Below are positions 17,550 through 57,779 of a stretch of DNA of 64,000 nt, piece by piece; positions within the stretch are counted from its first letter, which is position 1; each line of letters begins with the position of its first letter. The DNA comes from Dictyostelium discoideum (lineage: Eukaryota): assembly GCA_000004695.1 (NCBI GenBank), contig CM000153.2, positions 5,280,001-5,344,000 of the forward strand, in the 5' to 3' direction. Position numbers and translations under genes: made by a program. Under the pieces are notes generated by a model. The model was not told the DNA's origin, did no database searches, and saw only the letters and a program-made list of their open reading frames with translations.

Positions 17550-17621
17550 CCTAAACACAAAAATAATAATTTATATTCCCTAAACACAAAAATAATAATT
17601 TTTCACACACCCACCAAATTT
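17550..17621 (+). promoter_or_regulatory. Candidate promoter elements upstream of the G-alpha gene: a 23-bp direct repeat (CCTAAACACAAAAATAATAATTT x2) and a CA-rich element TTCACACACCCACCAAA.
   Basis: Direct repeat at 17550..17572 and 17579..17601. The CACACACCCACC motif at 17603..17621 resembles Dictyostelium G-box/CA-rich elements (GBF sites) and sits ~30 bp upstream of the ATG at 17647. Confidence 0.35.
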
Positions 17622-17646: not shown

Positions 17647-19535
17647 ATGGATTTCAATCCAGTACCACCACCAAGAGAAACACTCAGAGCTTATTTATCA
17701 AAAAAAGGACATGGTAGGAATTATATATATATAAAAAAAAAAAAAAAAATAAAGATCTAACATATATTAACATTTTTTTTTTTTTTTTTTAAAAATGAAA
17801 AAAGTTGTGAAAAATTGGAAATTAAGATTATTTGTATTAAAACCAGGTTCTAGTTATATGGAATATTTTGTAGATGAAACAGTAAGTTTAATTTTAATAT
17901 TCCAATTTAATTTTATTTTATTTTTTTATAAATCCTGATTTTTTTTTTTTTTATATTTTTTTTTAGAAAGAACAACAACATTTACCACAAGGTAGAGTAC
18001 CATTATATGGTACTAGAGTTATGGAATATGTATATAATAGTAATAATAATCCAAGAGAATTTTGTTTATCAGTAGAGACAGAAAATAAGAATTGGATTAT
18101 TTCAACAGGATCAAAAGCACAACAATTGGAATGGATTGAAGCAATTAAACATGCCATAGAGTCAGCAGTTGAAACAGACGAAATTAAATTACAAAAACAT
18201 AAATCAATTGAAAAACAGTTACAATTGGATGGTAAAAATAAAAATAAAATTCCAGTTTTAAAATTATTATTACTTGGTACTGGTGAATCTGGTAAATCAA
18301 CAGTTGTAAAACAAATGAAAATTTTACATCATAAAGGTTTCTCAAAAGAGGAGGAAGAATTTTATAGGAATTTAATTTATATAAATCTATTGGATGGTAT
18401 GGCATTACTCATTCATGTAATCAAAGAAAATAATATAGAAATTCCACAAGAAACTTTATCAGCAATTAAAAATTATAGTTCATGGTATAGAGTTTATATT
18501 GAAAAAAGAAATAAAAATGGTATTAGAAATAATCCAATTGGTTCAATGATACCAATTTCAATTTTAAATAATAATAAAGATAATAATAATAGCAATAGTA
18601 GTAGTTTAAAAAATAATAGTGGTGGTAGTTCAAGTAGTGAATTAGATAAAAAAATGACACATCTTAGTTTAGATGGATCAACTTGTATAAATTCAAATTC
18701 TGCTTCACCAAATGGACCATCATCATCTACAACAACATCAACAATAAATACACACAATCGTTCAAATAGTGATGGATCAAGTAATAATATATTTAATGTT
18801 CAAGATTTTGGAATTCCACCAATAATTACAAATTATATATCAACGATTTGGTCGGATCCAGTTGTACAATCAGAGGTGATGTTACAAGCTCAAAAGTATC
18901 ATATTAATGAATCCACTCAATATTATTTGAATGAGATAAAGAGAATAGGTAAACCAACATACCAACCTGTAAATTTAGATATCCTAAAATCACGTGCAAC
19001 TACCAATGGTGTGGTTGAAACTGATTTCAATGTAAATGGTGAAGTTATATTTAGAATTGTTGATGTTGCAGGTCAACGTGGTGAAAGAAAGAAATGGATA
19101 AACTTTTTCGATGATGTAACTGCAATAGTTTTCGTTGCAGCTATAAATGAATACGATCAGAAATTGGTCGAAGATAATTGTACCAATAGACTTCATGAAA
19201 GTTTGAATCTATTCGATTCGATTTGTAATGATTCAACTTTTCCAAAGACTTCAATCATATTATTCTTAAATAAAATCGATCTTTTCCGTGAGAAATTAAA
19301 AAGAACCTCAATCAATATTTGTTTTCCAGATTATAATGGTGATCAATCTTATGAAAAATCTTCAAATTATATAAAGAATAATTTTCTTTCAAAGAAAAAA
19401 GGTGGTAATGGTATAAATTCTCAAAATTTTATTTATTTCCATTTCACATGTGCCACTGATACTAAAAGTTTTGAAACAGTTTTTAATTCTGTTAGAGATA
19501 TTATAATTTCAAAAACTTTAGAATTTTATTGTTAA
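17647..19535 (+). CDS. Heterotrimeric G-protein alpha subunit with an N-terminal PH domain and an N/S-rich insert. Exons join(17647..17713,17805..17881,17967..19535).
   Basis: G-alpha motifs KLLLLGTGESGKSTVVKQMKILH (G1), RATTNGVVE (switch I), DVAGQRGERKKW (G3), FLNKIDLF (G4) and TCATDT (G5). Two short exons plus the start of exon 3 encode a PH-domain-like module (AYLSKKGH|VVKNWKLRLFVLKPGSSYMEYFVDET|KEQQHLPQGRVPLYGTRVMEY...NWIISTGSKAQQLEWIEAIKHAI). Intron phases are 1 and 0 with donors gtagga and gtaagt. Confidence 0.75.
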
Positions 19536-28631: not shown

Positions 28632-28753
28632 TTAAAATATAAAATATTAATAATATTAAAAATATATTATTATTTATTATTATTATTATTATAATTTATT
28701 ATTATTATTATTATTATTTATTATTATTAATATTATAATTATTATTTATTATT

Positions 28754-28785
<32 letters not shown>

Positions 28786-29609
28786 AATTATTATTATTAT
28801 TATTATTTATTATTATTAAAAAATAAAATTTAAAATTAAATTTTTTAATTAATTCAAAAATAATAACAATAATTTTAAATTAATCATTTAAAAAAATATT
28901 TGTAAAAAAAAAATACAAATTGAAAAAAAAGTAAGTTAACAATTTTTTTAAATAGATCCACACACAAAAAATGCGATTTATTAAAAAAAAATACACACAA
29001 TAAAAAAAAAAAAATTATAATAACAAGAAAACATGAGCGGTTTTTTTCATGTAAAACAGGTGGGTGTAGTTAGATATTTTCAAGATTATTATTTTTTATT
29101 TTTTAATTTTATTTTTAATTTATTTTTATTTATTTTTTATTTTTTTTTTTATAATTTTATTAAAATCTTTTTATTTTTTATAAAAAAATTCAATACATGT
29201 AGATAATTATTATGAAATCAAAAGCAACTACATATCGCCACCAAAATAATACCACCAACATCAACCGCAACAAACAAAACTAAAAATTAATAACAATACC
29301 ACCAACACACCAACACACCAACTTCAACAGCAACAAACAAAACCAACTAATAACTACACTACCAAACAACAGCAACAACAACCAGAAGAAAAATAGCAAA
29401 AGCAGGTGCAATTGGAGAATAGTTTCTAATGAATATTCAGTATTAATAAAAGAGGGTGAAATGAAATTATTATTATATTTAGAATTTAACCATCTAATTA
29501 TTAATAAATAATTAGAAAGTAGTTTAAACAATAAAAGTATATCAATATTTTTTTTTTATTTCTAATCTTTTTTTTTTTTTTTATTTCTAATCTTTTTTTT
29601 TATTTCTAA

Positions 29610-29647
<38 letters not shown>

Positions 29648-29663
29648 TACCTCCATTTATTAT

Positions 29664-31235
29664 TTATCTTTTTTTAATTTGAACAACTGTATTTTTGCAT
29701 TGTGTTGTTAAACCTGGAATACCATTATCATCAAATGGAATTGAAGGGTTTGGATTTATAAATTCATATCTATTCAAAACAGAAGCAATAATTGTAAAGA
29801 TTTCATTATATGCTAGTGATTTACCAATACAATCTCTAATTCCTGTACCAAAACTAATTAATGTTTGAGAGTTTTCATCTCCATTCCATCTTTCTGGTAT
29901 GAATTCATCTGGTTGGCTATAGAATGTATCAGATCTTTGAGTTGCATAAATATTTTGAAAAATCATTGTACCTTTTGCAATTGTGTACCCTTCAATCACA
30001 GTTTCTTGGGTGGTTTCATGTGGTGCACCAAATGGAGCTGCAGGATGTTTTCTATAGTTTTCTTTTAATGCTAATGATAGGTATGGTATTAATGAACGAT
30101 ATTTTGAATATTTTAATATTACCATACTCTCATTCATATAATCATCTGCTTGTTGATTTTGTTCAAATGAAACAACTATATCATTGTAAACTTTTGTTTG
30201 AATTGTTGGATTATTCATCATTTCAATTAAAAAGAATAATGCAGTACTAGATGTTGAGTCTGAACCTGCTGTAATAATGGTATTACAATTTGAAATGACC
30301 GCATCCCATGGAATATTACCTTTATCATGTTCAATCATTAATTTTGATAACATACATTCATCATCTTCTTTATATTTATGACTTTTAACAAGAGTTTCAA
30401 TTTGTACTACCAATGCTTGATATGATGTATATAGTTTTGATCTTTTTGAATGTGGTATTGGTAAGAAATCCGATAAAACTATCTCACCAGATGCAATTAA
30501 TAAATCTCTTATACCAACCATTAGATCACTAGTTTCTTCAAAATCTTGATATGGAAAATCAATACCAAATAAGAATCTTGAAATTATATTAATTGAAAAC
30601 ATTGAAAAATAATTATTCAATAAAAATGGTTTACCATCTTCTGAATGTTTATCTAATACCTTCATTAATTTAACAATTTCATTTTGAATATGTGATTCTT
30701 GTTTTTTAATTCTTGTTACTGTCAATTCAGATAGAAATATTCTTTTTAATGCTGATTGATTTTTACCATTTTCTTGAGTAATATCACTACATTTATTTAA
30801 TTTATATCTACTTTCAAAGGTATAATGTGGTGCAAATGCTTCTGAATTATCAATAAATGCTTTTTTAATAATTGGAAATCCAGTTAAAACAACTGCACTT
30901 TTATTACCCATATTCACACTATAAATCGGACCATATATTTTAAACCATTTTTGAAATGTTGTATGTATACCATTCTTATTATCCAATGATAATATATTAC
31001 CAAATATTGGTAGGCCAATTGGTCCTGGTATTTTTGAATTTATTTTTGATGGTGAATATTTATAATTCTTTTTTTTTATTAATTTTTTATTAATTATTTA
31101 AAAAAAAAAAAAATTAATATTAATATTAGTTTTTAGAAATTATTTTTACCCTAAAAAATTATTTATTATACATACTCTTTTAAATATTAAATATATTATA
31201 ATTGCTAAAATAACAGATAAAACTAATAAATTCAT
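29664..31235 (-). CDS. Cytochrome P450 monooxygenase. Exons join(complement(31176..31235),complement(29664..31067)).
   Basis: Heme-binding motif FGTGIRDCIGKSLA. Exon 1 MNLLVLSVILAIIIYLIFKR is a membrane anchor. A gtatgt intron precedes exon 2, which begins NYKYSPSKINSKIPGPIGLPIFGNILSL (PPGP hinge). Total ~487 aa. Confidence 0.8.
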
Positions 31236-32946: not shown

Positions 32947-33029
32947 CCGGCTTTGGCGCAATGGTAGCGCGATTGACTGTAGTAACGAAAGTGATCAATC
33001 GGTTGCTAGTTCGAATCTGGCAAGCCGGA
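32947..33029 (+). tRNA. tRNA-Tyr (anticodon GUA) with an 11-12 nt intron 3' of the anticodon
   Basis: Acceptor stem CCGGCTT/AAGCCGG (C1:G72 as in eukaryotic tRNA-Tyr). D-arm GCGC-AATGGTA-GCGC. Anticodon stem ATTGA/TCAAT with loop CUGUAG, then an intron (taacgaaagtga). T-arm GCTAG-TTCGAAT-CTGGC. Discriminator A. A T6 run follows immediately. Confidence 0.85.
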
Positions 33030-39652: not shown

Positions 39653-39797
39653 ATTTAATAAACTTTATTTGTTTTTTGAAAAAAAAAAAAATTTAGGGTC
39701 AGTGATTTTTTTTTTTCACTACGCTACTGTAGTGAAATTAAATAATAAAATTCACTACGCTACTGTAGTGAAATTTTATTGAAAATTCCCTACAACA
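39653..39797. repeat. Terminal inverted repeat (right) of the transposon
   Basis: Reverse complement of 36437..36582 with two mismatches. Confidence 0.8.
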
Positions 39798-42700
39798 ATC
39801 ACCACCTGCAATATATTTATATTCAGTTTTATCATTTGGATCATTTTTTGTTGTTGTTGTTGTTTTTGCTGTTATTGGTAATAATTTTTCATCCATTTCT
39901 TTTTTCTTTTTATCTAATGAATCATTTATAATTTGATAAACCATACCAATTGAATTTGATTGAATTTGTTGAATTGTAATAAGATGTGGAGACCATTCTT
40001 TATCGACCCAATTCTTTAATTGTACTGTAATTAATGAATCAGCACCATAGTTTATCATTTTAATATTTGTATTAATTTTTGATGGATCAATTGAAAGAAG
40101 TTCAGAAACTTTGTTTAAAAATTTATTTTTTACATTTGTTGATGATGATGATTGATTGGTATCATTTTCCATTGATATTGAATTATCAACATTAATTGGA
40201 TTTAAAATGAAATCAAATTTTTGATGAAGTTTTTGTTTAAAACTTTTGAATAATGGCCAATTGAAATTATTAACAAATGCATTGGTTGGCATATTTGGAT
40301 TTTGAATTTGTAAATCTAAAGTACCCAATAATTGATTTGGTGATATTAATTCAACACCTTGACCACCTAGTACTGCTTCAACAAGTTTATGTCTTGAAAG
40401 ATAACCTCTATCACTTACACCACCAATGTTAATTGTAAATGATGGTAATCCAATTGATTTACGATATTGTGATAACGAATCCACTACACAACATGCTGAA
40501 ACATAACTACATTGATCAAATGAACCTAATACTGAAACTACTGATGATGCTAAAATGAAATTAATAATTTTCCAATCTCTTTTAATTGATAAATTATGTA
40601 AATTAACTGCACCAAACGTTTTTGCACTATGCGAAACATTTAAACTATTCATATCAATATCTTTAAGTTTTTTATTAATTTGTAAAGCTGCAAAATGAAA
40701 TATTGAATCAATATTTGTAATTGTTGGATTATCTTTTAAAACTTGATCAATTGTTTTATTAATTAAATTCCAATTACTAATATCACATTTTTTGAAATGA
40801 TATTTAATTTTATTGTTATTATTATTATTATTATTGTTGTTGTTATAATTCATTAAAAATTCTAATTCCCATTTTAATGATGATTTTGAAAGAATAATTA
40901 TATTTTCAACAGTTGAATTATATTTTGTTATCCATTTTAAAACTTCTAAAATTAAACCAGTTTGACCTGTAACCAATACATTTTTACCAAGATTTTTAAT
41001 TTTATAATCTGATTTTAATATTGAATAATCAATCATTGATTCTTTTTCAATTAATTTATCTATGATATCAGTATCATGTGAAATTACAATTTTACCAACA
41101 TGTTTTCTTTCTTTAATTGATTCAATTGATTTTTTAATATTTGAATTTGAAAATTCTGTAATTGGTATTAAAGCATTTAAAGTTTCATTTTCAATTGATT
41201 TTGAAATTGACTGTAATAATTTCTTAATTGTTGATTTTCCAACTTTTAAAATTTCAATACTATTATAACCAATATTATATCTATATCTACTATTATCAAT
41301 AAATTCATTTGGATTTAAATGAGTAGTTGTTAAATCTACAATTCTACCTTTTGGATTTAAACATTTAAAATTTGTATCCATAAATTCACTTGATAAAGTA
41401 TTAATAATTAAATCAACACCATGAGTTTCATAACCTAATTCAATTAATTTGTTTTTAATTTGTTTTTGATAATTTGTGTCTCTTGTTGAATAAATTCCAG
41501 TAATTAAATCACCATAGGTATTAATTAGATATTGTTTCTTTTCTTCTGATCCAACTGTAACAAATATTGGTGATGAATGATTATTTGATTTTAATATTTC
41601 CAATCCTGATAATCCAACACCACCAGATCCTGAATGAATTAATACTGATTCTTCATCTCTTAAATTACCAACATCATATAAACAATAAAGTGATGTTGAA
41701 TAAACTGCTGGAATTGAAGCTGCTTGAACATGTGTAATCTTTGATGGTTTATGACATGCTAATAATGAATCAATAATAATATGAGATGATGATGTTTCAT
41801 ATGCAATACCATAAACTTGATCACCAACTTTAAATTCTTTAGATGATTTAATTCCAACACGACTTACTACACCAGAAAAATCAAAACCAATACCAGCTTC
41901 ATTTACTTTTATCATTTCATTATATTTCAAATAATCTTTATAATTTATACCAGTTGCTTTAACTTTTACTTCAATTTCATATGGTTCTAAATCAATTTGT
42001 TTTGAATTTAATTGATATTCAAAATGTTCATCTAATTTTGAAACTAATTGATCTTGTTGTTTTGATAAATCATGATATGATTCAGATTTATAAGAATTCT
42101 TTAAATTTTTTAATTCTTTTTTATACATTTCAAAATAAACAGTACCACTATTTTTTATATAAAATTCTCTTTGAATATTATTTTTTGGATTAATTAAATA
42201 ATCAATGGTTTTGAATAAATCCAAATCATTTGTTAATGAATCTTTATCAAAATCCAATGTAAATAATTGTAAAGTTGGAATTTCATCAAAGTATCTTGCT
42301 GCACCTAAAACTGATGATGATAAATAATTACTTGATTGTGAATCACATGTAATTAAAACATGAGTACATTTTGATTTTAATTCATATAATTTTTGATTAA
42401 TTTGAACATATTCAAATGTTACTGATTTAAAGTTTTCCAATGTTAATTGTTCAATTGATTTAATAAAATAAATGATTGAATTATTTGTAATTGTTGTTGA
42501 TAATTTGTAAAATTCTTCAATTGTTGATACTTTTATTATTTTACAATTATTATAATGATTTTCAAATTTATTAATTAATTGTTGTTGTTGGAGTTGTTCA
42601 TCTTGATAACAATATAAAATTACTTGATCAAATGTGTTTATTGTTTTTGGTTGTAATTTTAATGATGGTTTTTGAGCTTGAATAATAATTGATTTAATAT

Positions 42701-42803
42701 CACTATCAGATATACTTGAAGATTTAATCATTATATCAGAATTGAAATTACAATTAACCAATAAGTTTTTCAATGATTCTTTATTATTTTCATTATTTAA
42801 TAG

Positions 42804-42868
<65 letters not shown>

Positions 42869-45800
42869 CATTTATTATTAAATAACCATTTGGTGTTAAA
42901 ATTTGATAAATTTGATTTAATGAATATTCAATATCTTTTGTTAAATTTGAAATATTTGAAACAATAATTAAATCATAATATGATGGATTTAATTTTTGTT
43001 TTTCTAATAATGAATTATCAACATCTAAACCTAATGAACGATAAAGAATACTTAAATAACCCTTATCTACTTTTGATAATTCTAATTTAGCATCTTTTAA
43101 AATTGATGAATTATTATCACTCCATGTATATTCAATATCAATTTCATAATGTGGATTTTCTTCGAGTAATGAATTGATTTCATTCAATAATAAAGTTGAT
43201 TTTGATAAATTATTACCACCAAATTCTAAAATTCTAAATTCCATCTTTCTATTAATTAATGGTTTAATAGTTTCTATAACAACATTTGGAATTAATAAAC
43301 CATCATCTACTTGATTATTTTGATAAATTGATTTAAATTCTAATGGTGATTGAATTTGTGAATCTTTTGATTGAAGATATGGTGTATAAATAAAATCAGA
43401 TGGAGTTTCAATTAATAATGGATCTTTAACTGGTGTTAATGATTTAACTACCAAGTTATCAACTTCAATGATAACAGTACCATCTTCTAACATAACAACG
43501 ATAGATGAAGAGAGTAAATCATCAGATGGAGATGATTTTAAAGTTGAATAAATAAAGATACTTGAATGTTCATCTCTATTTTTTGGAATATTTGAAGCAT
43601 AATATCTTAAACCTTCAACTTTATCTGTTACAATTTTACAATTCTTTTGAATGTATAGAATAACGGTACCATGGAAACAAGCATCAATGAGTGGACAATT
43701 GAAAAATGATTGTTCATCATGAAAGTTTTCAGGTAATTCTAAGGATATTTCAGTTAATGAACAATTATCACCAATATAACATTCAACTACTTTACTAAAA
43801 ATACCATAAAAGTTTGCACCCAATTGAGTTTTCATTAGTGAATAAAATTCATCCCATGGAATTGATGATAAATTACATTTTGTTTGTTTAATATCTTGAA
43901 TATCCAATTTTTGTTTTTCTTCATGATAATTATCATTACTATTTAAGTGGAAATTAGAATTTGAAGTATTTATCCATTGATTATTCATTTCATCTTTTAA
44001 ATGAAATTGTGCTCTATATTCACTTTTACCAGTTTGATAAACATTTGTTTGTAAACATTGCCCAATACCATCGGTTAATACAAATGGTACCTTAAATTCA
44101 ATTGAATTAATTGTTAAATCTTGATTTGGATATAATTTAAATATATTATCAATATAACCTGTTCCTGGGAAATAACATTTATCAGATACATTATGACCTT
44201 TTAAATATTTGAATGCATCTTTTCCAGTATCAATTATTGTTTGATATGATTTAATAAATGGATTTGAATCTTGCATTGAATTACCGAGAATTGAAATTGG
44301 TGGTCCAATTAAATTATTTTTATGTTCAATTGATTTATTTAACCAATAATGTTGATCATCCCATTGATATAATGGTAAATTAAAATTACTAATAGCCTCA
44401 ATATTGCTATTTATATTATTAAATTGACATTTAAAATTAATATCATAAGCATCATCACAAAATAATTGTGAAATTGATTTTTGAAATTCTTCAACATCAT
44501 TCTTTTTCTTGTGAAGTGTTGAATAAACTGATATTGATTCACCATTTCTAAAGTATTGTGATTGTTTTGGAATCATTTGTTTTAAATAAAATGATAATGT
44601 TGGATGTGGTGCAATTTCAATGAATACAATATTTGAACCGATTTGATTATCTTCAATATGTTTATATAAATTTGAAATTGTTTGAGTGAATGAAACTGGT
44701 TTTGAAATATTATCAAAGAAATATTCAGAATCAAAAATAGTTGATTCATTAAATAAATTTGATGTAACTGTTGAAAATGTTGGAATAACAGGTTGACTTG
44801 ATTGAATATTTAAATTTAAAATATCATCTTTAATTATATTTTGACTACTTGTATGAAAACTTGATAAACTTCCTAACATTGCTGAGAATATTTCTTTTTC
44901 TTTTAATTCTTTTGAAATTTCATTTAAAATTTGTTCATTACCTGCGATTACAATTGATGATGGTGAATTATAACATGCAATTTCAATAGTTGGGTAACGT
45001 GACATATAGTTAGTTTTATATTCATCTGAACTAATGTTAATTGATAACATTTTACCTGACCCATTTGTTCTTATTTGTAATGTTGATCTATGATAAATTA
45101 AATAACATAATTGGTCAATATCAATCATACCTGAACAATAAGCAGTTGTTACTTCACCAAGACTATGACCCAACATAAATGATGCTTTTATACCCCAATG
45201 TTTATAAAGTTCATATAATGATACTTGAATAATTACAGTTGATGGTTGTGCCATTGTTTGTTCATGAACTGAACATTTATCACTATCTTGAATTGCTCTT
45301 AATTTCTCTAAAATTGAATATCCAAAATAATTTTTCATTTTATTATCTAGCATATCCATCGAATTTCTAAATACTTTTTCATTTTTATATAATTCTAATG
45401 CCATTGTATTATATTGTGATCCTTGACCACAAAATACAAATACAGTTATTGGATTATTATTTTTATTTGTAATTGTAATATTTGAAGAAGTACTACTTGA
45501 AGTTTGATATTTAACTTGATTTTCAACATTATTAAAATCATTCCAATCTTTTGCAACAATTACTGATCTTTGATAAAGTGATGTTGATTTATTATAAATT
45601 TGATTTTTAACAAATTCTTCAAAACTATATTGTGATTCATATTCTTTATTTTCAATAATTAATGATTGATATTTTTTTAATGATTCAACTGAATTTGCTG
45701 AAAATGGAATTAAATAATTATTTATTTTTATATTATTATGATTATGATTATGATTATGATTATTATTATGATTATTTATATTATTATTTATAGTATTATA

Positions 45801-47230
45801 ATTAAATTGAGATAATACTAAACAACAATTTGAACCAGTTGCACCAAAATTATTAACAACCATTGAAGTATTTTTAAATTTATTAAATGGAATTGGTTCA
45901 GTTACAACTTTTAAATTCCATTCTTTAAATTTAATTGCTGGATTTGGTGTTTTAAAATGAATATTTGGTGCAAAACATTTGTTTTTATACATTAAACAAC
46001 ATTTGATTAATGAAGCAATACCAGAAGCAGCTTCACAATGACCAATATTTGATTTAAATGATCCAATTAATAATGGAGTATCAGTTGAACGAGTATCTTT
46101 AAAAACTTTTGAAATACCTTCAACTTCAATTGGATCACCAGTTGGTGTACCAGTGCCATGTGCTTCAACATAATCTATATCAGATGGTTTAACAGTTCCA
46201 TTGGTTGATTGAATTGCATTTTTTAAATTTTCAGATTGTGAAATTGATGATGGTGAATAGAAATTTGATTTATCAGAATAACCAATACCATCAACATTTG
46301 CACTTGCACCATTTATTGTACAATAAATTCTATTACCATCTTTAATTGCATCTTTTAAATTCTTTAAAACCACAACACCAATACATTCACTTCTTACATA
46401 ACCATCAGCTGATGCATCAAATGATTTACATCTACCATTTGATTTACTTAATATATTCAATGAAGAATATGCTTTAAAAAAGTAAGAGTCTAATAAAATT
46501 AAAAAATTTAATTAATAAATAAATATAAAGATAAAATTAAAAAAACTATTAAAAAAAAATACATACCAAGTAATATATTAACACCACCAACAATTGACAT
46601 TTTTGATTTTTTATTTTTGATTGAATCATATCCTAATGCGATTGCATTTAAAGATGATGAACATGCAGTATCTAGAGTTATTGAATTACCATGAAGATCA
46701 TAACAATAGGAGATTCTATTTGAAATCGCATGATTTAAACTTGAGAATACATTTGATTTTACTTCATTTTTATTGATATTATGATAGTCACTTTCGGTAC
46801 AACCAATGAAAACCGAAGTATCTGTACCTTTGATTGAAATTGGATCAATTAATGAATCTTCTAATGCTTCCCATGTACATTTTAATAATAATCTTTGAAT
46901 TGGGTCAATGGTTGGTGCTTCATTTGGATTAATACCAAAAAAGAGTGGATCAAATGATTTAACTTCATCCAATGGTAATAGTCCTGAATAATTATTTGCA
47001 ATTTCATGATTTTTGAAAAAGTTATCATTGAATCTTTCTGATGTTTTCACTACACCATCGAAACCATTTATTAAATTATTCCATAATGTTTGAGGTGTAT
47101 TGTTTCTTTCATTTTCAATACTTCCACTTGGTAATCTAAAGCCAACACCAACAATTGCAACTAAATTTTCTTCAACATGTTTATCATCAACTTGTAAAAT
47201 TTCTGCTTTATTTATTTTATTTTGTTTCAT
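39738..47230 (-). CDS. Iterative type I polyketide synthase (KS-AT-DH-cMT-ER-KR-ACP). Its C-terminus reads into the transposon TIR and stops there. Exons join(complement(46567..47230),complement(39738..46479)).
   Basis: KS: DTACSSSL (exon 1), [19 protein letters not shown]: [18 protein letters not shown]: [17 protein letters not shown]. cMT-like: [15 protein letters not shown]: [19 protein letters not shown]: [19 protein letters not shown]: [11 protein letters not shown]. The phase-1 intron (donor ctt g|gtatgt, acceptor ttttattag) splits GGVNILL | [24 protein letters not shown]. The final 8 codons ([17 protein letters not shown]) are encoded by the TIR. Confidence 0.85.
39798..39802. repeat. 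Target-site duplication ATCAC (right copy)
   Basis: Matches 36432..36436. Confidence 0.75.
42803..42868 (-). repeat. (CAA)n microsatellite encoding a 22-residue polyGln inside PKS1 (cMT/linker region)
   Basis: ttgttgttg... run on the plus strand. The protein reads [37 protein letters not shown] versus [19 protein letters not shown] in the paralog. Confidence 0.85.
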
Positions 47231-47639
47231 TATTTTTTATAAATAAATTATTAATTAATTTTTATTTTAATTGAGTGAAGGCTTTTTAAATAATATAAAA
47301 TAAAATAAAATAAAAAGAAAAGCTACTATTTAATTTTAAAACCAAATACTCTTTTATTTTTATTTTTTTTTTTATTTTTTTTTTTTATAATAATATAGTA
47401 TAGTAATAATACAAACCTTGATCTTATCATAATTAATAATGATAACAAAAAAAAAAATTTTATAAAGATTGGAGATAATGGTTATTAATATTAATAGTTA
47501 AATAAAAAACACTATAAAAGGATCCTTTATTTTTTTAGATAATATGGTTGTGGGGTCGTAAAAAAAAAAAAAAAAAAATAAATTAATGAAAAATAAAAAA
47601 AAATAAAAATTAAGTATTTTTTCTATAACAATTTAATAA

Positions 47640-47702
<63 letters not shown>

Positions 47703-47780
47703 TGATTAATAGTTAAAATTACCTAAATTTAGATATCAATTACCTGTTAAATTATAAAATTCCTCGAACATCCATTATTT

Positions 47781-47837
<57 letters not shown>

Positions 47838-48049
47838 TTCCTATAAATATCTCATTATTTTTTTTTTTGATTAATAAATTGATTATATTTTAGTAATGTT
47901 TAAAATTTTAAATATTTTTTTTAAAAAAAAAAAAAAAAAAAAACAAAAATTATTCATCTTTTATTTAACAAATTTAAACATTTTAAATATTTTTTTAAAA
48001 AAAAAAAAAATTAATTTTTTTTGGATGGATTTAAAAAAAAATTTTAAAT

Positions 48050-48886
48050 TTAAAAATATTTTTTTTTTATTCTTAATAATGGAGTATTATTATTAATATT
48101 AATAATTCCATCAGTACCATTTTCATAAGAAATTTTAAAAATTCCATTTGTATAGTAATAGAAACCTTCGTCGAATTTTAAAAAAAATACAAGACCAGTT
48201 AATATATTTGAAAATTCTACGAAATAATTTGCAGAATATTTCAATTGACCAACTGAAATTGGATTTAAATTAAAAGAGAAAACATTTACAAAATCATTTA
48301 AAGAATTTGTTTTTTCTTGATATATTAAAACACCATTTTCAGTTTCACTTTCAATGATTCTATATATTTTTGTATTATTTGTTAATTTTGGAGATTGACC
48401 AATTTCATTGCCAATTTCAATTGGAAAATAACAAGATAGAAAAGTGAAACAAGCATCAACCAAGTATTTTTTATTCTTAAATTCCATTACATTGCAATAA
48501 TGAAGTCCGATATTTGGGTATACCAAATTCTCTCCACCGTCAATTGCTTTAATTAATTGAACTTTTATTCCAAATTCTTGTAATAACATACCAAATAATA
48601 TATTATGGTTTAAACAAATATTGCCAACCTCTTTCTCTATCATTGTTTCAACAATATAATCCATATCGATTGTTGGTCCATCTTTTAAAACGTCAATATT
48701 ATTATATGGAAAATGTTCTGCAAATTTCACCATTAACAATTCAAAATCATCCAAACAATTTAATTGAAAATCAATTTCTAAATTTAATTTTGGTAATATA
48801 ATTTCTTTAAAATTATATTTTTTATTTGCTAATTTTAATTCTTCATAACTGAAATGTAAAAAATAGTCTTTGTCATTAATTTCCAT
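48050..48886 (-). CDS. Arylamine N-acetyltransferase (NAT)-family protein
   Basis: 278 aa. The NAT catalytic-cysteine motif region reads EKEVGNICLNHNILFGMLLQEFG (compare RGGWCLQVNHLLYWAL in human NAT). Downstream His/Asp region is HYCNVMEFKNKKYLVDACFT (compare HLLLQV...YIVDAGFG). The gene lies between the two divergent PKS genes. Confidence 0.6.
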   Translation of the reverse strand: MEINDKDYFLHFSYEELKLANKKYNFKEIILPKLNLEIDFQLNCLDDFELLMVKFAEHFPYNNIDVLKDGPTIDMDYIVETMIEKEVGNICLNHNILFGMLLQEFGIKVQLIKAIDGGENLVYPNIGLHYCNVMEFKNKKYLVDACFTFLSCYFPIEIGNEIGQSPKLTNNTKIYRIIESETENGVLIYQEKTNSLNDFVNVFSFNLNPISVGQLKYSANYFVEFSNILTGLVFFLKFDEGFYYYTNGIFKISYENGTDGIININNNTPLLRIKKKYF

Positions 48887-48896
48887 TTTTTTTATT

Positions 48897-48932
<36 letters not shown>

Positions 48933-49079
48933 CAAAGTATTGTTTATTTTAAATGAAATTATAATTAAATATAAAAATTAGAGGAATTAAATATATTTTA
49001 AGGGTATAATTTAATTTTTTAAAAATTAATTTATAAAAATTAATAATTTTTATAATAATACCCAAAATTATCTGTTGAT

Positions 49080-49121
<42 letters not shown>

Positions 49122-49410
49122 AACGAAAATCCCAAATTATTTATAAAAATGGTGTGTCATTGTTCGTGGATTCAGGACCCAAAAAATAAAATAATAAAAA
49201 AACAATTCAAGTTCCCATTGAGGAACTTGTTCTTAAATGGGTAATTTTTGAGAAAACTTTATTATTTTTATCAGATAATAGATATAATTTATCTTTTAAT
49301 TACTTTAATACCATTAAATTATTAATAATTTAAAAAAATAATATTATTTATTATTTCCTACACAATTTTAAAAATTAAAAAAACAATTATAAAAAAAAAA
49401 TTTTAAAAAT

Positions 49411-49485
49411 AAAGAAGTGAGATTAATATTTTTCCACAACTTGGAATTCTAAAACCAATACAAATGTGCATTATCTCACTTCTTT
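49411..49485. repeat. Perfect 13-bp inverted repeat (AAAGAAGTGAGAT ... ATCTCACTTCTTT) with a 49-nt spacer, in the NAT/PKS2 intergenic region
   Basis: Exact complementarity of 49411..49423 and 49473..49485. Confidence 0.6.
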
Positions 49486-49946
49486 ATTTTTAAAATTTTT
49501 TTTTTATATTTGCCATACCTTAATAATCTATTATTTTTTTTCATTTTCACAATTTTAATTAATTAAGCTATTTAATTTATCATTCATTTTTAAATTTTAA
49601 TTTTAATTAAACAAAATTTTTTTTTTTATTTTTAAAAATTTATTTTTGTTATTAGTATTTGTTTATAAATGATCTTTTTTTTTTAAAAAAATTAATTTAA
49701 ATCTTTGAATCTGTGTCTATTAATTTATTTTTATTTTTTTTTTTTTTTATAAAAAAAAAAAAATTTGATGTGCAAATCGGGTTAAAAAAAAAAAAAAAAA
49801 AAACAAATGGATTTGTTCTATCTAAATAGGGTTAATAGAAAAAAAATTTAGGTTTTCAAAAAAAAAAAGTTCTGTATTTGTTATTGTGGTAACTTTTTTT
49901 TTATAATTTTTCATTTTTTTTTTTTTTTCCATTCATTTACATTTTT

Positions 49947-50405
49947 AACACCACACCAAAAGTTTAAATATATACAAAGGTTTTTTTGAAATGTGGTGTA
50001 TTGTTGTGAGATTCAATGGTTAAGTGGATATTAAATTTTAATTTTAAAAAATTTTTAATAACCTAATAGTAATCAATAACTCAAATTTTAGAAAAAAAAA
50101 AGAAAAGTAGTATCAATAAAGTGGAAGAAAAAAAAAAAAAATTTTAAACCACCAATTTATAATTTCATATAAAAAATTATTAATGCTTAGTAAAAGAATA
50201 CAAAATTTTTTTGCTTCCCATTGAAACTTTCACTAGATAATCCAGTGATTTTTTTAACATGTAATCTAACACTTTAAAAGAGTAAAAATTATGTAAGCAA
50301 TACTATAAACACGTGATACAATTTATTTATTTATTATTAATAATAAGAAACAAACCACACCAAAATTTTTATTAATATAAGAAAAAACCACACCAAAATT
50401 TTTAA
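49947..50405 (+). promoter_or_regulatory. Three CA-rich elements (ACCACACCAAAA) in the shared upstream region of PKS2 and the NAT-like gene, plus GT-rich counterparts at 49151..49176 and 49993..50019
   Basis: AACACCACACCAAAAG at 49947..49962. AAACCACACCAAAATTTTTA is directly repeated at 50353..50372 and 50386..50405, 150-200 bp upstream of the PKS2 ATG. GGTGTGTCATTGTTCGTGGATTCAGG (49151) and GTGGTGTATTGTTGTGAGATTCAATGG (49993) share a GTGT..ATTGTT.GTG.GATTCA core. Confidence 0.35.
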
Positions 50406-50550
50406 AGATAATATTAAAATATAATTTACTAATTTATATTAATATATTATTATTTTTTAAAAAAAAAAAAAAATAAAAATTGATTTAAAAACAAATTTTA
50501 TATATTTTTGATTTTATATATTTATCAAACCAATAAAACAATTTTTAATA

Positions 50551-53500
50551 ATGGATAATAGTTATTTAAATAATCCCCAATTTGATATTAATAATGGTAA
50601 TAAAGAAGTTACAGATGATGATAATAATAAAAATAATCAAGATAATTTAGTAGCAATTGTTGGTGTTGGTTTTAGATTACCAAGTGGTGAAAATGAAAGA
50701 AATAATACACCTCAAGCATTATGGAATAATTTAATAAATGGTTTCGATGGTGTAGTGAAAACATCGGAAAGATTCAATGATAACTTTTTCAAAAATCATG
50801 AAATAGCAAATAACTATTCAGGACTATTACCATTGGATGAAGTTAAATCATTTGATCCACTCTTTTTTGGTATTACTCCTAATGAAGCACAAACTATAGA
50901 TCCTCATCAAAGATTATTATTAAAATGTACATGGGAAGCATTAGAAGATTCATTAATTGATCCAATATCAATCAAAGGTACTGATACTTCTGTTTTCATT
51001 GGCTCTTCAACAAATGATTATCTTACATTAAATAGAAATGAAGTAAAATCAAATGTGTTTGGTAGTATGGCTCATTCAATTGCAAATAGAGTATCCTATT
51101 GTTATGATCTTCATGGTAATTCAATAACTCTAGATACTGCATGTTCATCATCTTTAAATGCAATCGCATTAGGATATGATTCAATCAAAAATAAAAAATC
51201 AAAAATGTCAATTGTTGGTGGTGTTAATATATTACTTGGTATGTATTATTTTTAAAATTTTTTATTATATTTTATTTTTTACAAAATTATTAATTAAAAT
51301 TATATTATTATTTTTTTTTAAAAGACCCATATCCATATAAGGCATTCTCAATTTTGAATATGTTAAGTAAATCAAATGGTAGATGTAAATCATTTGATGC
51401 ATCAGCTGATGGATTTGTTAGAGGTGAATGTATTGGTGTTGTTATTTTAAAGAATTTAAAAGATGCAATTAAAGATGGTAATAGAATTTATTGTACAATA
51501 AATGGTGCAAGTGCAAATGTTGATGGTATTGGTTATTCTGATAAATCAAATTTCTATTCACCATCATCAATTTCACAATCTGAAAATTTAAAAAATGCAA
51601 TTCAATCAACCAATGGAACTGTTAAACCATCTGATATAGATTATGTTGAAGCACATGGCACTGGTACACCAAATGGTGATCCTGTAGAAACCGAAGGTAT
51701 ATCAAAAGTTTTTAAAGATACTCGTTCAACTGATACTCCATTATTAATTGGATCATTTAAATCAAATATTGGTCATTGTGAAGCTGCTTCTGGTATTGCT
51801 TCATTAATCAAATGTTGTTTAATGTATAAAAATAAATGTTTTGCACCAAATATTCATTTTAAAACACCAAATCCAGCAATTAAATTTAAAGAATGGAATT
51901 TAAAAGTTGTAACTGAACCAATTCCATTTAATGAAAATAAAAATACTTCAATGATTATTAATAACTTTGGTGTTACTGGTTCAAATTGTTGTTTAGTATT
52001 ATCTCAATTTAATAATACAAATAAACAAAAACAACAAATGAAAACAAAAATAAATAATTATTTAATTCCATTTTCAGCAAATTCAGTTGAATCATTAAAA
52101 AAATATCAATCATTAATTATAAATAGTAAAGAAAATGAATTAAAATATAGTTTTGAAGAATTTGTTAAAAACCAAGTATTTATTAAACCAACATCACTTT
52201 ATCAAAGATCTGTAATTGTTGCAAAAGATTGGAATGATTTTAATAATGTTGAAAATCAAGTTAAATATCAAACTTCAAGTAGTACTTCTTCAAATATTAC
52301 AATTACAAATAAAAATAATAATCCAATAACTGTATTTGTATTTTGTGGTCAAGGATCACAATATAATACAATGGCATTAGAATTATATAAAAATGAAAAA
52401 GTATTTAGAAATTCGATGGATATGCTAGATAATAAAATGAAAAATTATTTTGGATATTCAATTTTAGAGAAATTAAGAGCAATTCAAGATAGTGATAAAC
52501 GTTCAGTTCATGAACAAACAATGGCACAACCATCAACTGTAATTATTCAAGTATCATTATATGAACTTTATAAACATTGGGGTATAAAAGCATCATTTAT
52601 GTTGGGTCATAGTCTTGGTGAAGTAACAACTGCTTATTGTTCAGGTATGATTGATATTGACCAATTATGTTATTTAATTTATCATAGATCAACATTACAA
52701 ATAAGAACAAATGGGTTAGGTAAAATGTTATCAATTAACATTAGTTCAGATGAATATAAAACTAACTATATGTCACGTTATCCAACCATTGAAATTGCAT
52801 GTTATAATTCACCATCATCAATTGTAATCGCAGGTAATGAACAAATTTTAAATGAAATTTCAAAAGAATTAAAAGAAAAAGAAATTTTCTCAGCAATGTT
52901 AGGAAGTTTATCAAGTTTTCATACAAGTAGTCAAAATATAATTAAAGATGATATTTTAAATTTAAATATCCAATCAAGTCAACCTGTTATTCCAACATTT
53001 TCAACAGTTACATCAAATTTATTTAATGAATCAACTATTTTTGATTCTGAATATTTCTTTGATAATATTTCAAAACCAGTTTCATTCACTCAAACAATTT
53101 CAAATTTATATAAACATATTGAAGATAATCAAATCGGTTCAAATATTGTATTCATTGAAATTGCACCACATCCAACATTATCATTTTATTTAAAACAAAT
53201 GATTCCAAAACAATCACAATACTTTAGAAATGGTGAATCAATATCAGTTTATTCAACACTTCATAAGAAAAAGAATGATGTTGAAGAATTTCAAAAATCA
53301 ATTTCACAATTATTTTGTGATGATGCTTATGATATTAATTTTAAATGTCAATTTAATAATATAAATAGCAATATTGAGGCTATTAGTAATTTTAATTTAC
53401 CATTATATCAATGGGATGATCAACATTATTGGTTAAATAAATCAATTGAACATAAAAATAATTTAATTGGACCACCAATTTCAATTCTCGGTAATTCAAT

Positions 53501-56500
53501 GCAAGATTCAAATCCATTTATTAAATCATATCAAACAATAATTGATACTGGAAAAGATGCATTCAAATATTTAAAAGGTCATAATGTATCTGATAAATGT
53601 TATTTCCCAGGTGCAGGTTATATTGATAATCTTTTAAAATTATATCCAAATCAAGATTTAACAATTAATTCAATTGAATTTAAAACACCTTTAATATTAT
53701 CAGATGATAATGGTCAATTTTTACAAACAAATGTTTATCAAACTGGTAAAAGTGATTATAGAGCTCAATTTCATTTTAAAGATAATAGAACAAATGTATG
53801 GGTTCAAACATGTACTGCTAATTTTCAATTATATAATAATGGTAAAGTTGATAAATTAAATTTAGAAGAAATTAAATCAACAAAATGTAATTTATCATCA
53901 ATACCATGGGATAAATTTTATCCACATATAAAAAATAGAACTGGTTTAAACTATAAAGACAAATTTCAAAATACAATTGAATGCTATCTTGGTGATAATT
54001 GTTCATTAACTGAAATATCATTAGAATTACCAGAAAACTTTCATGATCAAGAATCATTTTTTAATACACCAATTTTAGATATTTGCTTCCATGGTTCAAT
54101 TGTTTTAATTAAGGATAATTGTAAACTTGTTTTGGATAAAATTGATGGTTTTAAATTATATACATCAAACATTCCAAAAAATAGATTTGATCATTTAAGT
54201 ATTTTTGTATATACAACTATGAAATCAACAAAATCAAATTCATACAATTCAACATACACAGTAATGTTAGAAGATGGTACTGTTATACTTGAAGTTGAAA
54301 ATTTAATATGTACATCATTAACACCAGTTAAAGATCCATTATTAATTGAAATTCCAACTGATATGTATTATACTCCATATCTTCAATCAAAAGATTCACA
54401 AATTCAATCACCATTAGAATTTAAATCAATTTATCAAAACAATCAAGATAATGATAGCTTATTAATTCCAAATGTTGTTTTAGAAACAATTAAACCATTA
54501 ATTAATGAGCAAATGGAATTTAGAATTTTAGAATTTGGTGGTAATAATTTATCAAATTCAACTTTATTATTGAATTCAATCAATTCATTACTTGAAGAAA
54601 ATCCACATTATGAAATTGATATTGAATATACATGGAGTGATAATAATTCATCAATTTTAAAAGATGCTAAATTAGAATTATCAAAAGTAGATAAAGGTTA
54701 TTTAAGTATTCTTTATCGTTCATTAGGTTTAGATGTTGATAATTCATTATTAGAAAAACAAAAATTAAATCCATCATATTATGATTTAATTATTGTTTCA
54801 AATATTTCAAATTTAACAAAAGATATTAAATATTCATTAAATCAAATTTATCAAATTTTAACACCAAATGGTAATTTAATAATAAATGAACAACAACCAA
54901 ACAATGAAAATAATGAAAATAATGAAGATTCATTGAAAAACTTATTGGTTAATTGTAATTTCAATTCTGATATAATGATGAAATCTTCAAGTGTATCTGA
55001 TAGTGATATTAAATCAATTATTATTCAAGCTCAAAAACCATCATTAAAATTACAACCAAAAACAATAAACACTTTTGATCAAGTCATTTTATATTGTAAT
55101 CAAGATGAACAATTCCAACAACAACAACAATTAATTAATAAATTTGAAAGTCATTATAATAATAATTGTAAAATAATAAAAGTATCAACAATTGAAGAAT
55201 TTTATAAATTATCAACAACAATTACAAATAATTCAATCATTTATTTTATAAAATCAATTGAACAATTAACATTGGAAAACTTTAAATCAATAACATTTGA
55301 ATATGTTCAAATTAATCAAAAATTATATGAATTTAAATCAAAATGTACTCACGTTTTAATTACATATGATTCTCAATCAAGTAATTATTTATCATCATCA
55401 ATTTTAGGTGCAGCAAGATACTTTGATGAAATTCCAACTTTACAATTATTTACATTTGATTTTGATAAAGATTCATTAATTAATTTAGACATTTCGGTTA
55501 TAGATCATTTGATAGATCCAAAACAAAATACATTGATTGAATTCTTTATTAAAAAAAATGGTAAAGTTTATTTTGAAAGATTTAAAAAAGGTTTAAAGAA
55601 AAATTCTTTTAAATCAGAATCATATCATCAAATTACAAATGAACAAGAAATTTTAATTTCAAAATTAGATGAAAATTTAGATTATCAATTAAAATCAAAA
55701 GATTCAATTTTAAAACCATATGATATTGAAGTAGAAATTAAAGCAACTGGTTTAAATTATAAAGATTATTTAGTATATAGTGGTTTAATAAAATTAAAAG
55801 GTGATAGTGTTGATTTTGGTCTTGATTTTTCTGGTAGAGTTAGTCGTGTTGGAATTAAATCATCAAAAGAATTTAAAGTTGGTGATGAAGTTTATGGTAT
55901 TGGACAATCAACATCATCATCTCATATTATTATTGATTCAATGCATGCATGTCATAAACCATCAAAGATTACACATGTTCAAGCAGCTTCAATTCCAGCA
56001 GTTTATGCAACTTCAATTCATTCTTTATATAATATTGGTAATTTAAGAGAAGGAGAATCAATTTTAATTCATTCAGGATCTGGTGGTGTTGGATTATCAG
56101 CATTGGAAATATTAAAATCAAATAATCATTCATCTCCAATATTTGTTACAGTTGGATCAGAAGAAAAGAAACAATATCTAATTAATACCTATGGTAATTT
56201 AATCACTGGAATTTATTCAACAAGAGATACAAATTATCAAAAACAAATTAAAAACAAATTAATTGAATTAGGTTATGAAACTCATGGTGTTGATTTAATT
56301 ATTAATACTTTATCAAGTGAATTTATGGATAGCAATTTCAAATGTTTAAATCCAGAAGGTAGAATTGTAGATTTAACAATTACTCATTTAAATCCAAATG
56401 AATTTATTGATAATAATAAATTTAAATATAATTTTGGTTATCATAATATTGAATTATATTATTGTGAAAAGCCAACAATTAAGAAACTATTACAGTCAAT

Positions 56501-57779
56501 TTCAAAATCAATTGAAAATAATACATTAAATTATTTAATTCCAATTACAGAATTTTCAAATTCAAATATTAAAAAAGCAATTGAATACATTAATGAACGT
56601 AAACATGTTGGAAAAATTGTAATTTCTCATGATACAGATATTACTAATAAATTAATTGAAAATCAACCTAAAATTGATTACTCTTTATTGAAATCAAATT
56701 ATAAAATTAAAAATCTTGGTAAAAATGTATTGGTTACAGGTCAAACTGGTCTAATTTTAGATATTATAAATTGGATTATGAAATATAATTCAACTGTTGA
56801 AAATATAATTATTCTTTCAAAATCATCAATGAAATGGGAAATGGAATTTTTAATTAACAACAATAAGACAAAAATTAAATTCTATTATAAAAGATGTGAT
56901 ATTGGTGGTGATTCAGATTCAATTAATAAAACATTTGATAAATTGTTTACAGAAAATCCAACAATTACAAACATTGATTCAATATTCCATTTTGCAGTTG
57001 TACAAATTACAAGAAAAGTAAAAGATATTGATATGAAATCATTAAATATTTCACATGATGCAAAAACAATTGGTGCAATTAATTTACATAATCAATCAAT
57101 TAAAAGAGATTGGAAATTAAGTAATTTCATATTAGCATCTTCAATTCTTTCAAAAGTTGGTTCATTAGATCAATGTGGATATGTTTCAGCATGTTGTGTA
57201 CTTGACTCATTTTCAAAATATCGTTTATCTATTGGATTACCTGCATTATCAATTAATATTGGTGCTATGGGTGGAAGTGGAATGGTTGCAAGAAGTGAAC
57301 TTGTTGAAACTGTACTTAATGGTCAAGGTTATAATTTAACCTCAACAAACCAACTATTAGGTACAATTGATTTATTAATTCAAAATCCTGGTCAAGAATC
57401 AAATAATTTAATGGTTGGTAATTTTAATTTCCCAGTTTTTAATAATTTCAAACAAAAGATTCATCAAAAATTTGATTTTATTTTTAATGCTCTTGATTCA
57501 AACTCTGAAAATGGTGATGGTAGTAATATCAAAAATTCAACAAATATTAAAGATAAATTTTTAAACAAAGTATCAGAATTTCTTTCAATTGATTCATCTA
57601 AAATTAATAATGATATTAAATTAATGAATTATGGTGCTGATTCATTAATTACTGTTCAATTAAAGAATTGGGTTGATAAAGAATGGTCTCCAAATTTAAT
57701 TACAATTCATCAAATTCAATCAAATTCAATTGGTATGGTTTGTCAAATTATAAATGATAATTTTGAAAAAAAAAAATAA
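50551..57779 (+). CDS. Iterative type I polyketide synthase (KS-AT-DH-cMT-ER-KR-ACP), a paralog of PKS1 in inverted orientation. Exons join(50551..51238,51325..57779).
   Basis: Same domain motifs as PKS1 ([83 protein letters not shown]). The phase-1 intron (ctt g|gtatgt ... aaaag) splits GGVNILL | [24 protein letters not shown]. The stop comes right after the ACP (...[11 protein letters not shown]). Confidence 0.9.

Follow-up and report, generated by a model that had tools for sequence, protein, structure and literature searches.

A conserved C-rich box upstream of the polyketide synthase gene pks25 of Dictyostelium discoideum, a candidate G-box/CAE-type promoter element, and its additional copies in the AX4 lineage

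The spacer between the divergent genes NAT4 and pks25 of Dictyostelium discoideum AX4 contains three copies of a C-rich box, and interspecies conservation of the sequence, position, and strand of the copy closest to pks25 speaks for a function. We put the probability that this proximal box is an upstream activator site of pks25, with GBF as the leading candidate factor and developmental activation as the outcome, at roughly 0.5.

The window, that is, the whole stretch of DNA analyzed, is 64 kb of D. discoideum AX4 chromosome 4, which has ~22% G+C and carries an FNIP-repeat gene, both of which are typical Dictyostelium traits. Gene names were taken from exact-sequence look-ups. The genes that surround the spacer are the following:

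48050 to 48886, minus strand: arylamine N-acetyltransferase 4 (NAT4; DDB_G0287121, Q54KU4), Pfam PF00797 with E = 2.3e-18, by exact-sequence look-up
50551 to 57779, plus strand: pks25 (DDB_G0287095, Q54KU3), exons 50551 to 51238 and 51325 to 57779, by exact-sequence look-up
39738 to 47230, minus strand: a second PKS gene, downstream of the NAT gene, probably pks24

The look-up matched the 2380-aa spliced product of pks25 exactly to "Probable polyketide synthase 25"; a protein search with the N-terminal exon of pks25 gave fragmentary models and returned no names. The spacer between the NAT4 and pks25 start codons (48887 to 50550) is 1664 bp long, has ~15% G+C, and contains no ORF of at least 40 aa. 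The PKS-NAT-PKS arrangement at 39738 to 57779, in which pks25 and the probable pks24 flank the divergent NAT gene, is kept across the D. discoideum group. NAT protein orthologues are present in newly deposited dictyostelid genomes, and eight orthologous loci from D. discoideum strains, D. cf. discoideum, D. citrinum, and D. dimigraforme were compared. These are listed with their non-coding identity to AX4 and with the box found upstream of the PKS ATG, together with one paralogous locus:

AX4, D. discoideum: CCACACC, 163 bp upstream
L001, D. discoideum, 99.7% identity: CCACACC, 163 bp upstream
L004, D. discoideum, 83% identity: CCACACC, 177 bp upstream
L010, D. discoideum, 79% identity: CCACACC, 164 bp upstream
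L005, D. cf. discoideum, 70% identity: CCACACC, 163 bp upstream
L009, D. cf. discoideum (GCA_054859235.1), 68% identity: weakened TCACACT at the homologous site
L006, D. citrinum, 56% identity: CCACACC, 174 bp upstream
L008, D. dimigraforme, full spacer left out of the alignment: CCACCCC, a consensus-fitting variant, 179 bp upstream
L007, paralogous NAT locus in the same genome as L009 (GCA_054859235.1): no box

L009, with PKS genes on both flanks, is the true NAT orthologue of GCA_054859235.1. L007 has a more divergent NAT copy (85% identity) and a 723-bp spacer, and it lacks a downstream PKS gene; either part of the cluster was duplicated to give this paralogous copy, or that assembly contains mixed material.

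In AX4, there are exactly three copies of ACCACACCAAAA in the 64-kb window, at 49950 to 49961, 50354 to 50365, and 50387 to 50398, always on the plus strand. The expected count in the window is 0.01, and none of 100 shuffles reached 3. The original prediction that a CA-rich element is present three times is thus borne out, with coordinates that had been 1 to 3 bases off, and so is its claim of a 20-bp perfect direct repeat, which is AAACCACACCAAAATTTTTA at 50352 to 50371 and again at 50385 to 50404. The copies are arranged as follows:

50385 to 50404, plus strand: proximal CA-box 20-mer, ancestral; core CCACACC at 50388 to 50394, 163 bp upstream of the pks25 ATG
50352 to 50371, plus strand: second copy of the 20-mer, lineage-specific; core at 50355 to 50361; a 33-bp tandem duplication
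50329 to 50404, no strand assigned: tandem array holding both proximal boxes (TRF: period 33, 2.2 copies, 93% matches, score 129)
49948 to 49961, plus strand: distal CA box ACACCACACCAAAA, which is (ACACC)x2 followed by AAAA; core at 49951 to 49957, 600 bp upstream of the pks25 ATG

The comparison of species singles out the proximal copy. In an alignment of AX4, L004, L005, and L006, AAACCACACC (50385 to 50394) is the sole invariant block of at least 6 columns with G or C in the 1664-bp spacer. Only 16 of the 249 AX4 G/C positions are invariant in this alignment, and 5 of these 16 are the Cs of CCACACC at 50388 to 50394. D. citrinum keeps 20% of AX4 G/C positions, and its retention of 5 of 5 box Cs has a probability of ~3e-4. 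In seven loci, the proximal box lies at -163 to -179 with its C-rich strand as the coding strand, and an exact box inside a 50-bp positional window has a chance of ≤2e-4 in every lineage. At L009, both flanking Cs have mutated, which breaks the strict GBF consensus. Conservation of sequence, position, and orientation beyond the neutral background, as expected of a phylogenetic footprint, was found for the proximal copy only. Judging from these sequence comparisons, the proximal box is somewhat more likely than not to be a functional site for a factor.

Two conserved elements lie between the proximal box and the pks25 coding region:

50406 to 50411, plus strand: AGATAA, GATA-like, 12 bp downstream of the proximal box
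50424 to 50443, plus strand: AT block ATTTACTAATTTATATTAAT, kept in AX4, L010, L004, L005, and L009

The AGAT beside the box is kept in all aligned orthologues, including L008 and L009, and its G at 50407 is among the 16 invariant G/C columns; a GATA factor might conceivably be tied to this site. Within the AT block, ATTAAT (50438 to 50443) is invariant across the four aligned lineages, and the block is a plausible candidate for the TATA region of pks25. TTTATCAAACCAAT is conserved directly before the pks25 ATG. The spacer also contains a CACGTG palindrome (AAACACGTGATAC) at 50310 to 50315, 75 bp upstream of the proximal CA box. L004 and L009 share this palindrome, L010 has CAAGTG and D. citrinum has CACTTG in its place, and L005 lacks it. 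The adjoining ATGTAAGCAATAC is conserved in four lineages, and both may be further promoter elements. A RUNX-like reading of the box (AACCACA) was dropped because the match is lost in L008 and L009; we know of no Runt-domain factor in Dictyostelium.

The other two AX4 copies have a different history. The copy at 50352 to 50371 aligns to a gap in L004, L005, L006, L009, and L010 and is present only in AX4 and L001, which have two boxes 33 bp apart where all other lineages have one. The alignment indicates that this copy arose recently, when the ancestral box was duplicated in tandem as a 33-bp unit. At the distal box, AX4 has AACACCACACCAAAAG and L005 has AACACCAAAAG, a difference of a 5-bp ACACC duplication; L005 carries a single ACACC (AACACCAAAAGTTTAA) at the distal site, L004 lacks the segment, and no matching box is seen there in L010, L006, or L009. 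By this comparison, the distal box was most likely created by 5-bp ACACC slippage. The three copies are therefore not independent events, since two come from one tandem duplication and the third is (ACACC)x2. Because the second copy is gapped elsewhere and the distal site has a single ACACC or no match in the other lineages, the triplication is specific to the AX4 lineage, and the ancestral promoter had one box. Thus, the triplication that had been predicted is real in AX4 and the 99.7%-identical L001, but it is not the ancestral design, which is one copy.

The sites were also compared with the response element published for GBF, (T/G)G(T/G)G(T/G)G(T/G) (PMC2257962, which cites Hjorth 1990). 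This comparison takes in two GT-rich motifs on the other strand:

49151 to 49157, minus strand: NAT-proximal box, GGTGTGT on the plus strand; the NAT sense strand has ACACACC and then ATTTTTATAAATAA; 265 bp upstream of the NAT ATG
49992 to 49999, minus strand: TGTGGTGT, the second GT-rich motif, which forms an 8-bp inverted repeat with 49948 to 49955

The 7-mer consensus is fitted by GGTGTGT at 49151 and, on the minus strand, by GGTGTGG at 49951, 50355, and 50388. Accordingly, the description of the elements as G-box/CAE-like holds for CCACACC/GGTGTGG, and both predicted GT-rich motifs are present, but the one at 49992 misses the strict 7-mer. Across the window, there are 32 matches compared with 26.5 ± 5.9 expected, so the GBF consensus is loose and weakly informative. 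Per kb, crude non-coding DNA has ~4-fold more matches (0.92) than coding DNA (0.23), although its G+C content is lower. The NAT-pks25 spacer has 4 such 7-mers in 1.6 kb compared with 0.53 expected (P = 0.008 by dinucleotide shuffle). When the tandem pair is counted once, there are 3 (P = 0.03), and when the slippage copy is also discounted, there are 2 (P = 0.11). The spacer at 28632 to 29666 has five, which is more than the NAT-pks25 spacer has. Based on the P values after discounting and on this richer spacer, enrichment alone is modest and non-unique; the enrichment over background for which the prediction had called is seen in the raw count but does not survive the removal of duplication and slippage copies.

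The five 7-mers of that 1-kb spacer form a CAE-like cluster at 28958 to 29319, and a second CAE-like cluster, CACACACCCACC at 17605 to 17615, lies ~410 bp upstream of a plus-strand ORF at 18021, which indicates that such boxes are common in promoters of this genome. Two other clean PKS promoters were sampled, one of which has a sense-oriented ACACCCA at -206 and one of which has no box. The idea of a general PKS-promoter box was rejected on this result, with a box in only one of the two.

These counts bear on a neutral explanation, in which the repeats are slippage and duplication products of an AT-rich spacer and the conservation of the proximal box reflects chance or limited divergence. Such an origin fits the recent, lineage-specific nature of two of the three copies, the absence of the distal copy from the L004 alignment and of any counterpart in L010, L006, and L009, the two sites that remain after discounting, and the mutation of both flanking Cs in L009. 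However, it does not readily account for a proximal box that is the sole invariant G/C block in 1.66 kb when the spacers are otherwise 56 to 83% identical, for the retention in D. citrinum, or for the fixed position and strand, with a variant persisting even in D. dimigraforme. We therefore regard neutrality as an unlikely explanation of the whole.

Our preferred reading remains an activator site. In the mechanism that we infer, from protein binding and the identity of the factor to the direction and timing of regulation and the effect of copy number, AAACCACACC would act as a cis-regulatory element ~45 bp before the TATA-like AT block and 163 bp before the ATG. A sequence-specific transcription factor would bind it and, most likely, activate pks25 during multicellular development. 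The leading candidate would be the zinc-finger protein GBF (GbfA), whose response element is matched on the opposite strand; as the identity of the factor, GBF is a tentative choice. It leads because the consensus matches, because GbfA recognizes G-rich motifs in prestalk and prespore genes (PMC6598861) and has a role in the induction of these genes (PMC6598861; PMC2257962), and because developmental induction was seen for nearly all of the D. discoideum pks genes examined (PMC9618038). By analogy with these pks genes, developmental regulation, as originally predicted, is likely in any case, so the prediction has no discriminating power. The two additional AX4 copies may raise factor occupancy through paired sites; these copies lie outside the conserved design. 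That the AX4/NC4-type lineage went from a single activator box to three, and so to a paired high-affinity site, with expression of pks24-NAT4-pks25 re-tuned relative to other D. discoideum-group lineages, strikes us as improbable. If true, this secondary-metabolite cluster would exemplify cis-regulatory evolution in nature through multiplied binding sites, and the sites might offer a way to turn the cluster on.

Characterized GBF elements are among the closest known systems. Classical ones have longer G/C-rich runs. Hjorth in 1990 and Schnitzler in 1994 are said to have described sites that are usually paired, and with its single ancestral box, the pks25 promoter is a poor fit with paired GBF sites. 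The proximal box resembles the cprB G-boxes and the cotC/SP60 CA-rich elements in its fit to a short G/T-rich (C/A-rich) consensus and in lying upstream of a gene from a developmentally induced class; in AX4, pks25 further resembles them in having two nearby copies and then an AT-rich segment. It differs in that pks25 ancestrally had one 7-mer and no partner site. The GBF literature describes "pairs of contiguous binding sites" (PMC2257962), and the title of Powell-Coffman 1994, as it is cited in PMC6598861 and PMC3253789, speaks of a "GBF-binding site plus AT element." The spacers of divergent sigN genes contain paired putative GBF sites that were proposed to serve both neighbors (PMC2257962). 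They are like the NAT-pks25 spacer in having consensus G/C-rich boxes between oppositely oriented genes, and the sigN genes are developmentally regulated. However, the sigN spacers are short with two close pairs, whereas the NAT-pks25 spacer is 1.66 kb, and each of its two genes has a proximal box of its own, over 1 kb from the other gene. Overall, the proximal box is probably best described as a candidate member of the known Dictyostelium G-box/CAE-type class of promoter elements.

A functional site for a factor other than GBF is a possibility that we hold with some doubt. The factor might be the bZIP protein DimB (with DimA) or another C/A-box binder, perhaps with a GATA factor on AGATAA. 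According to PMC3253789, DimB belongs to the pathway of DIF-1, a chlorinated polyketide, and binds C-rich motifs such as CCCCAC; this is the sequence of its site S in pspA, a 5/6 match to the ecmA site R2. Like pspA site S and the ecmA sites R1 and R2 in that source, the pks25 box contains a C-rich hexamer in a developmental promoter, and its CCACAC is a 5/6 match to site S. The variants ACCCACACC in L010 and CCACCCC in L008 are more C-rich still, and a single ancestral box suits a single-site factor better than it suits a paired GBF site. On the other hand, the invariant core is CCACACC and not CCCCAC, and the DimB consensus is poorly defined in the accessible literature. The invariant AGAT next to the box would suit a GATA partner, but we estimate that AGATAA should turn up several times per kb by chance in this AT-rich DNA.

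The presumed pks24 promoter has a C-rich box of its own, which also bears on the choice between GBF and DimB:

47549 to 47555, minus strand: pks24-side C-rich box ACGACCCCACAACC (gene sense strand), 325 bp upstream of the ATG of that PKS gene

CCCCAC is contained exactly in this box, in favor of DimB. The box is retained in L004, occurs as a variant in L005 and as CCACCACACACACA in L008, and is absent in L006. The strongest footprint in the presumed pks24 promoter is ATCTCCAATCTT (47465 to 47476, minus strand), which does not vary among the six lineages aligned, D. dimigraforme included; most lineages read TTATCTCCAATCTT in this region, and its TTATCT is a GATA site in reverse complement.

On the NAT side, the box reads GACACACCATTTTTATAAATAA on the NAT sense strand. 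L004 keeps it at +268 and L010 at +240, and L005 has a degenerate form. In D. citrinum, another consensus box is found on this side, GGTGTGGGT at +158 (158 bp upstream), which indicates turnover. The pks25-side boxes lie ~1.07, 1.47, and 1.5 kb from the NAT start codon. With these distances of more than 1 kb and with a box of its own for NAT at -265, the spacer is better described as two gene-proximal promoters than as one shared promoter. The bidirectional promoter of the original prediction is therefore confirmed as a divergent spacer between a PF00797 NAT gene and a PKS gene, but not as one shared element. NAT4 (ACACACC), the probable pks24 (CCCCACA), and pks25 each have their own sense-oriented C-rich box, so one factor could co-induce all three genes of this biosynthetic cluster.

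In a G/C-filtered k-mer scan, TTCCCATTGA occurs twice in the NAT-pks25 spacer, at 49212 to 49221 and 50215 to 50224; the first copy lies within a small palindrome, AAGTTCCcattgaGGAACTT, and this palindrome is conserved in L004 and partly in L005. We tried the GT motifs at 49151 and 49992 and the TTCCCATTGA pair as an old module duplication and rejected it, as the local alignment score of 27 compares with 23.5 ± 3.2 for shuffles (maximum, 38).

The inverted repeat between the distal CA box (ACACCACA at 49948) and the GT motif (TGTGGTGT at 49992) raises the question of whether the motifs belong to a non-coding RNA gene, a hairpin, or a mobile-element remnant. Its 8-bp arms and a separate perfect 32-bp hairpin nearby, at 49392 to 49504, fit this idea, but L004 has the GT arm and lacks the CA arm; the inverted repeat is thus not conserved, and a conserved hairpin was rejected. 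The larger hairpin is specific to AX4 and L001. A non-coding RNA was rejected because an Rfam search of 47000 to 51000 at a permissive threshold gave only insignificant miRNA-like matches (best E = 0.96), and at the gathering threshold, the whole window gave one tRNA. A mobile-element remnant was rejected because the extended similarity of the GT motifs (again 27 compared with 23.5 ± 3.2) is not significant, and the spacer's lack of an ORF of at least 40 aa likewise speaks against all these forms. We consider this group of explanations highly improbable.

The larger structure is a perfect 32-bp inverted repeat (49392 to 49423 and 49473 to 49504) with a 49-nt loop, for which RNA folding gives -37.9 kcal/mol and z = -10.5. 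It is absent from all other orthologous spacers, and its sole Rfam match is insignificant and miRNA-like (E = 0.96). One possibility is a palindrome inserted recently, another a young locus for a hairpin RNA.

Most of the ~40 polyketide synthases of D. discoideum have unknown products and are barely expressed in culture. A conserved pks25 promoter element is a concrete target for reporter and activation experiments on the pks24-NAT4-pks25 cluster, and the natural existence of one-box and three-box strains allows a simple direct comparison of copy number. Beyond the cluster, it is an ordinary candidate transcription factor site of a class already described in Dictyostelium. The Pfam family of NAT4 also includes the rifamycin amide synthase RifF, and NAT4 may be a tailoring or release enzyme of the pks24/pks25 cluster. 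Recent work proposed that pks24 and pks25 act together and are functionally linked, with candidate products drawn from metabolite features missing in mature fruiting bodies; a "chlorinated polyaromatic amine" is among the pks24/25-dependent candidates (PMC12625978).

Three further observations concern genes of this type and the window. NAT4 is 278 aa in AX4, compared with 285 to 298 aa in other genomes and 291 aa in the closest strains (the difference lies at 48050 to 48170). AX4 and L001 differ at six residues in the last 40, and the AX4 stop codon comes 13 codons early, which is either a real change of the C terminus or the result of errors in one assembly. In an AX4-like strain, a further PKS locus (L011, 1805 to 10577) consists of short gene models (KS, 339 aa; AT, 327 aa) beside a reverse-transcriptase gene, which suggests a disrupted paralogue next to a retrotransposon. 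The tRNA gene of the window lies at 32947 to 33029 (Rfam RF00005, 57.8 bits), and ARAGORN gives it an odd 4-base anticodon, probably because the gene contains an intron.
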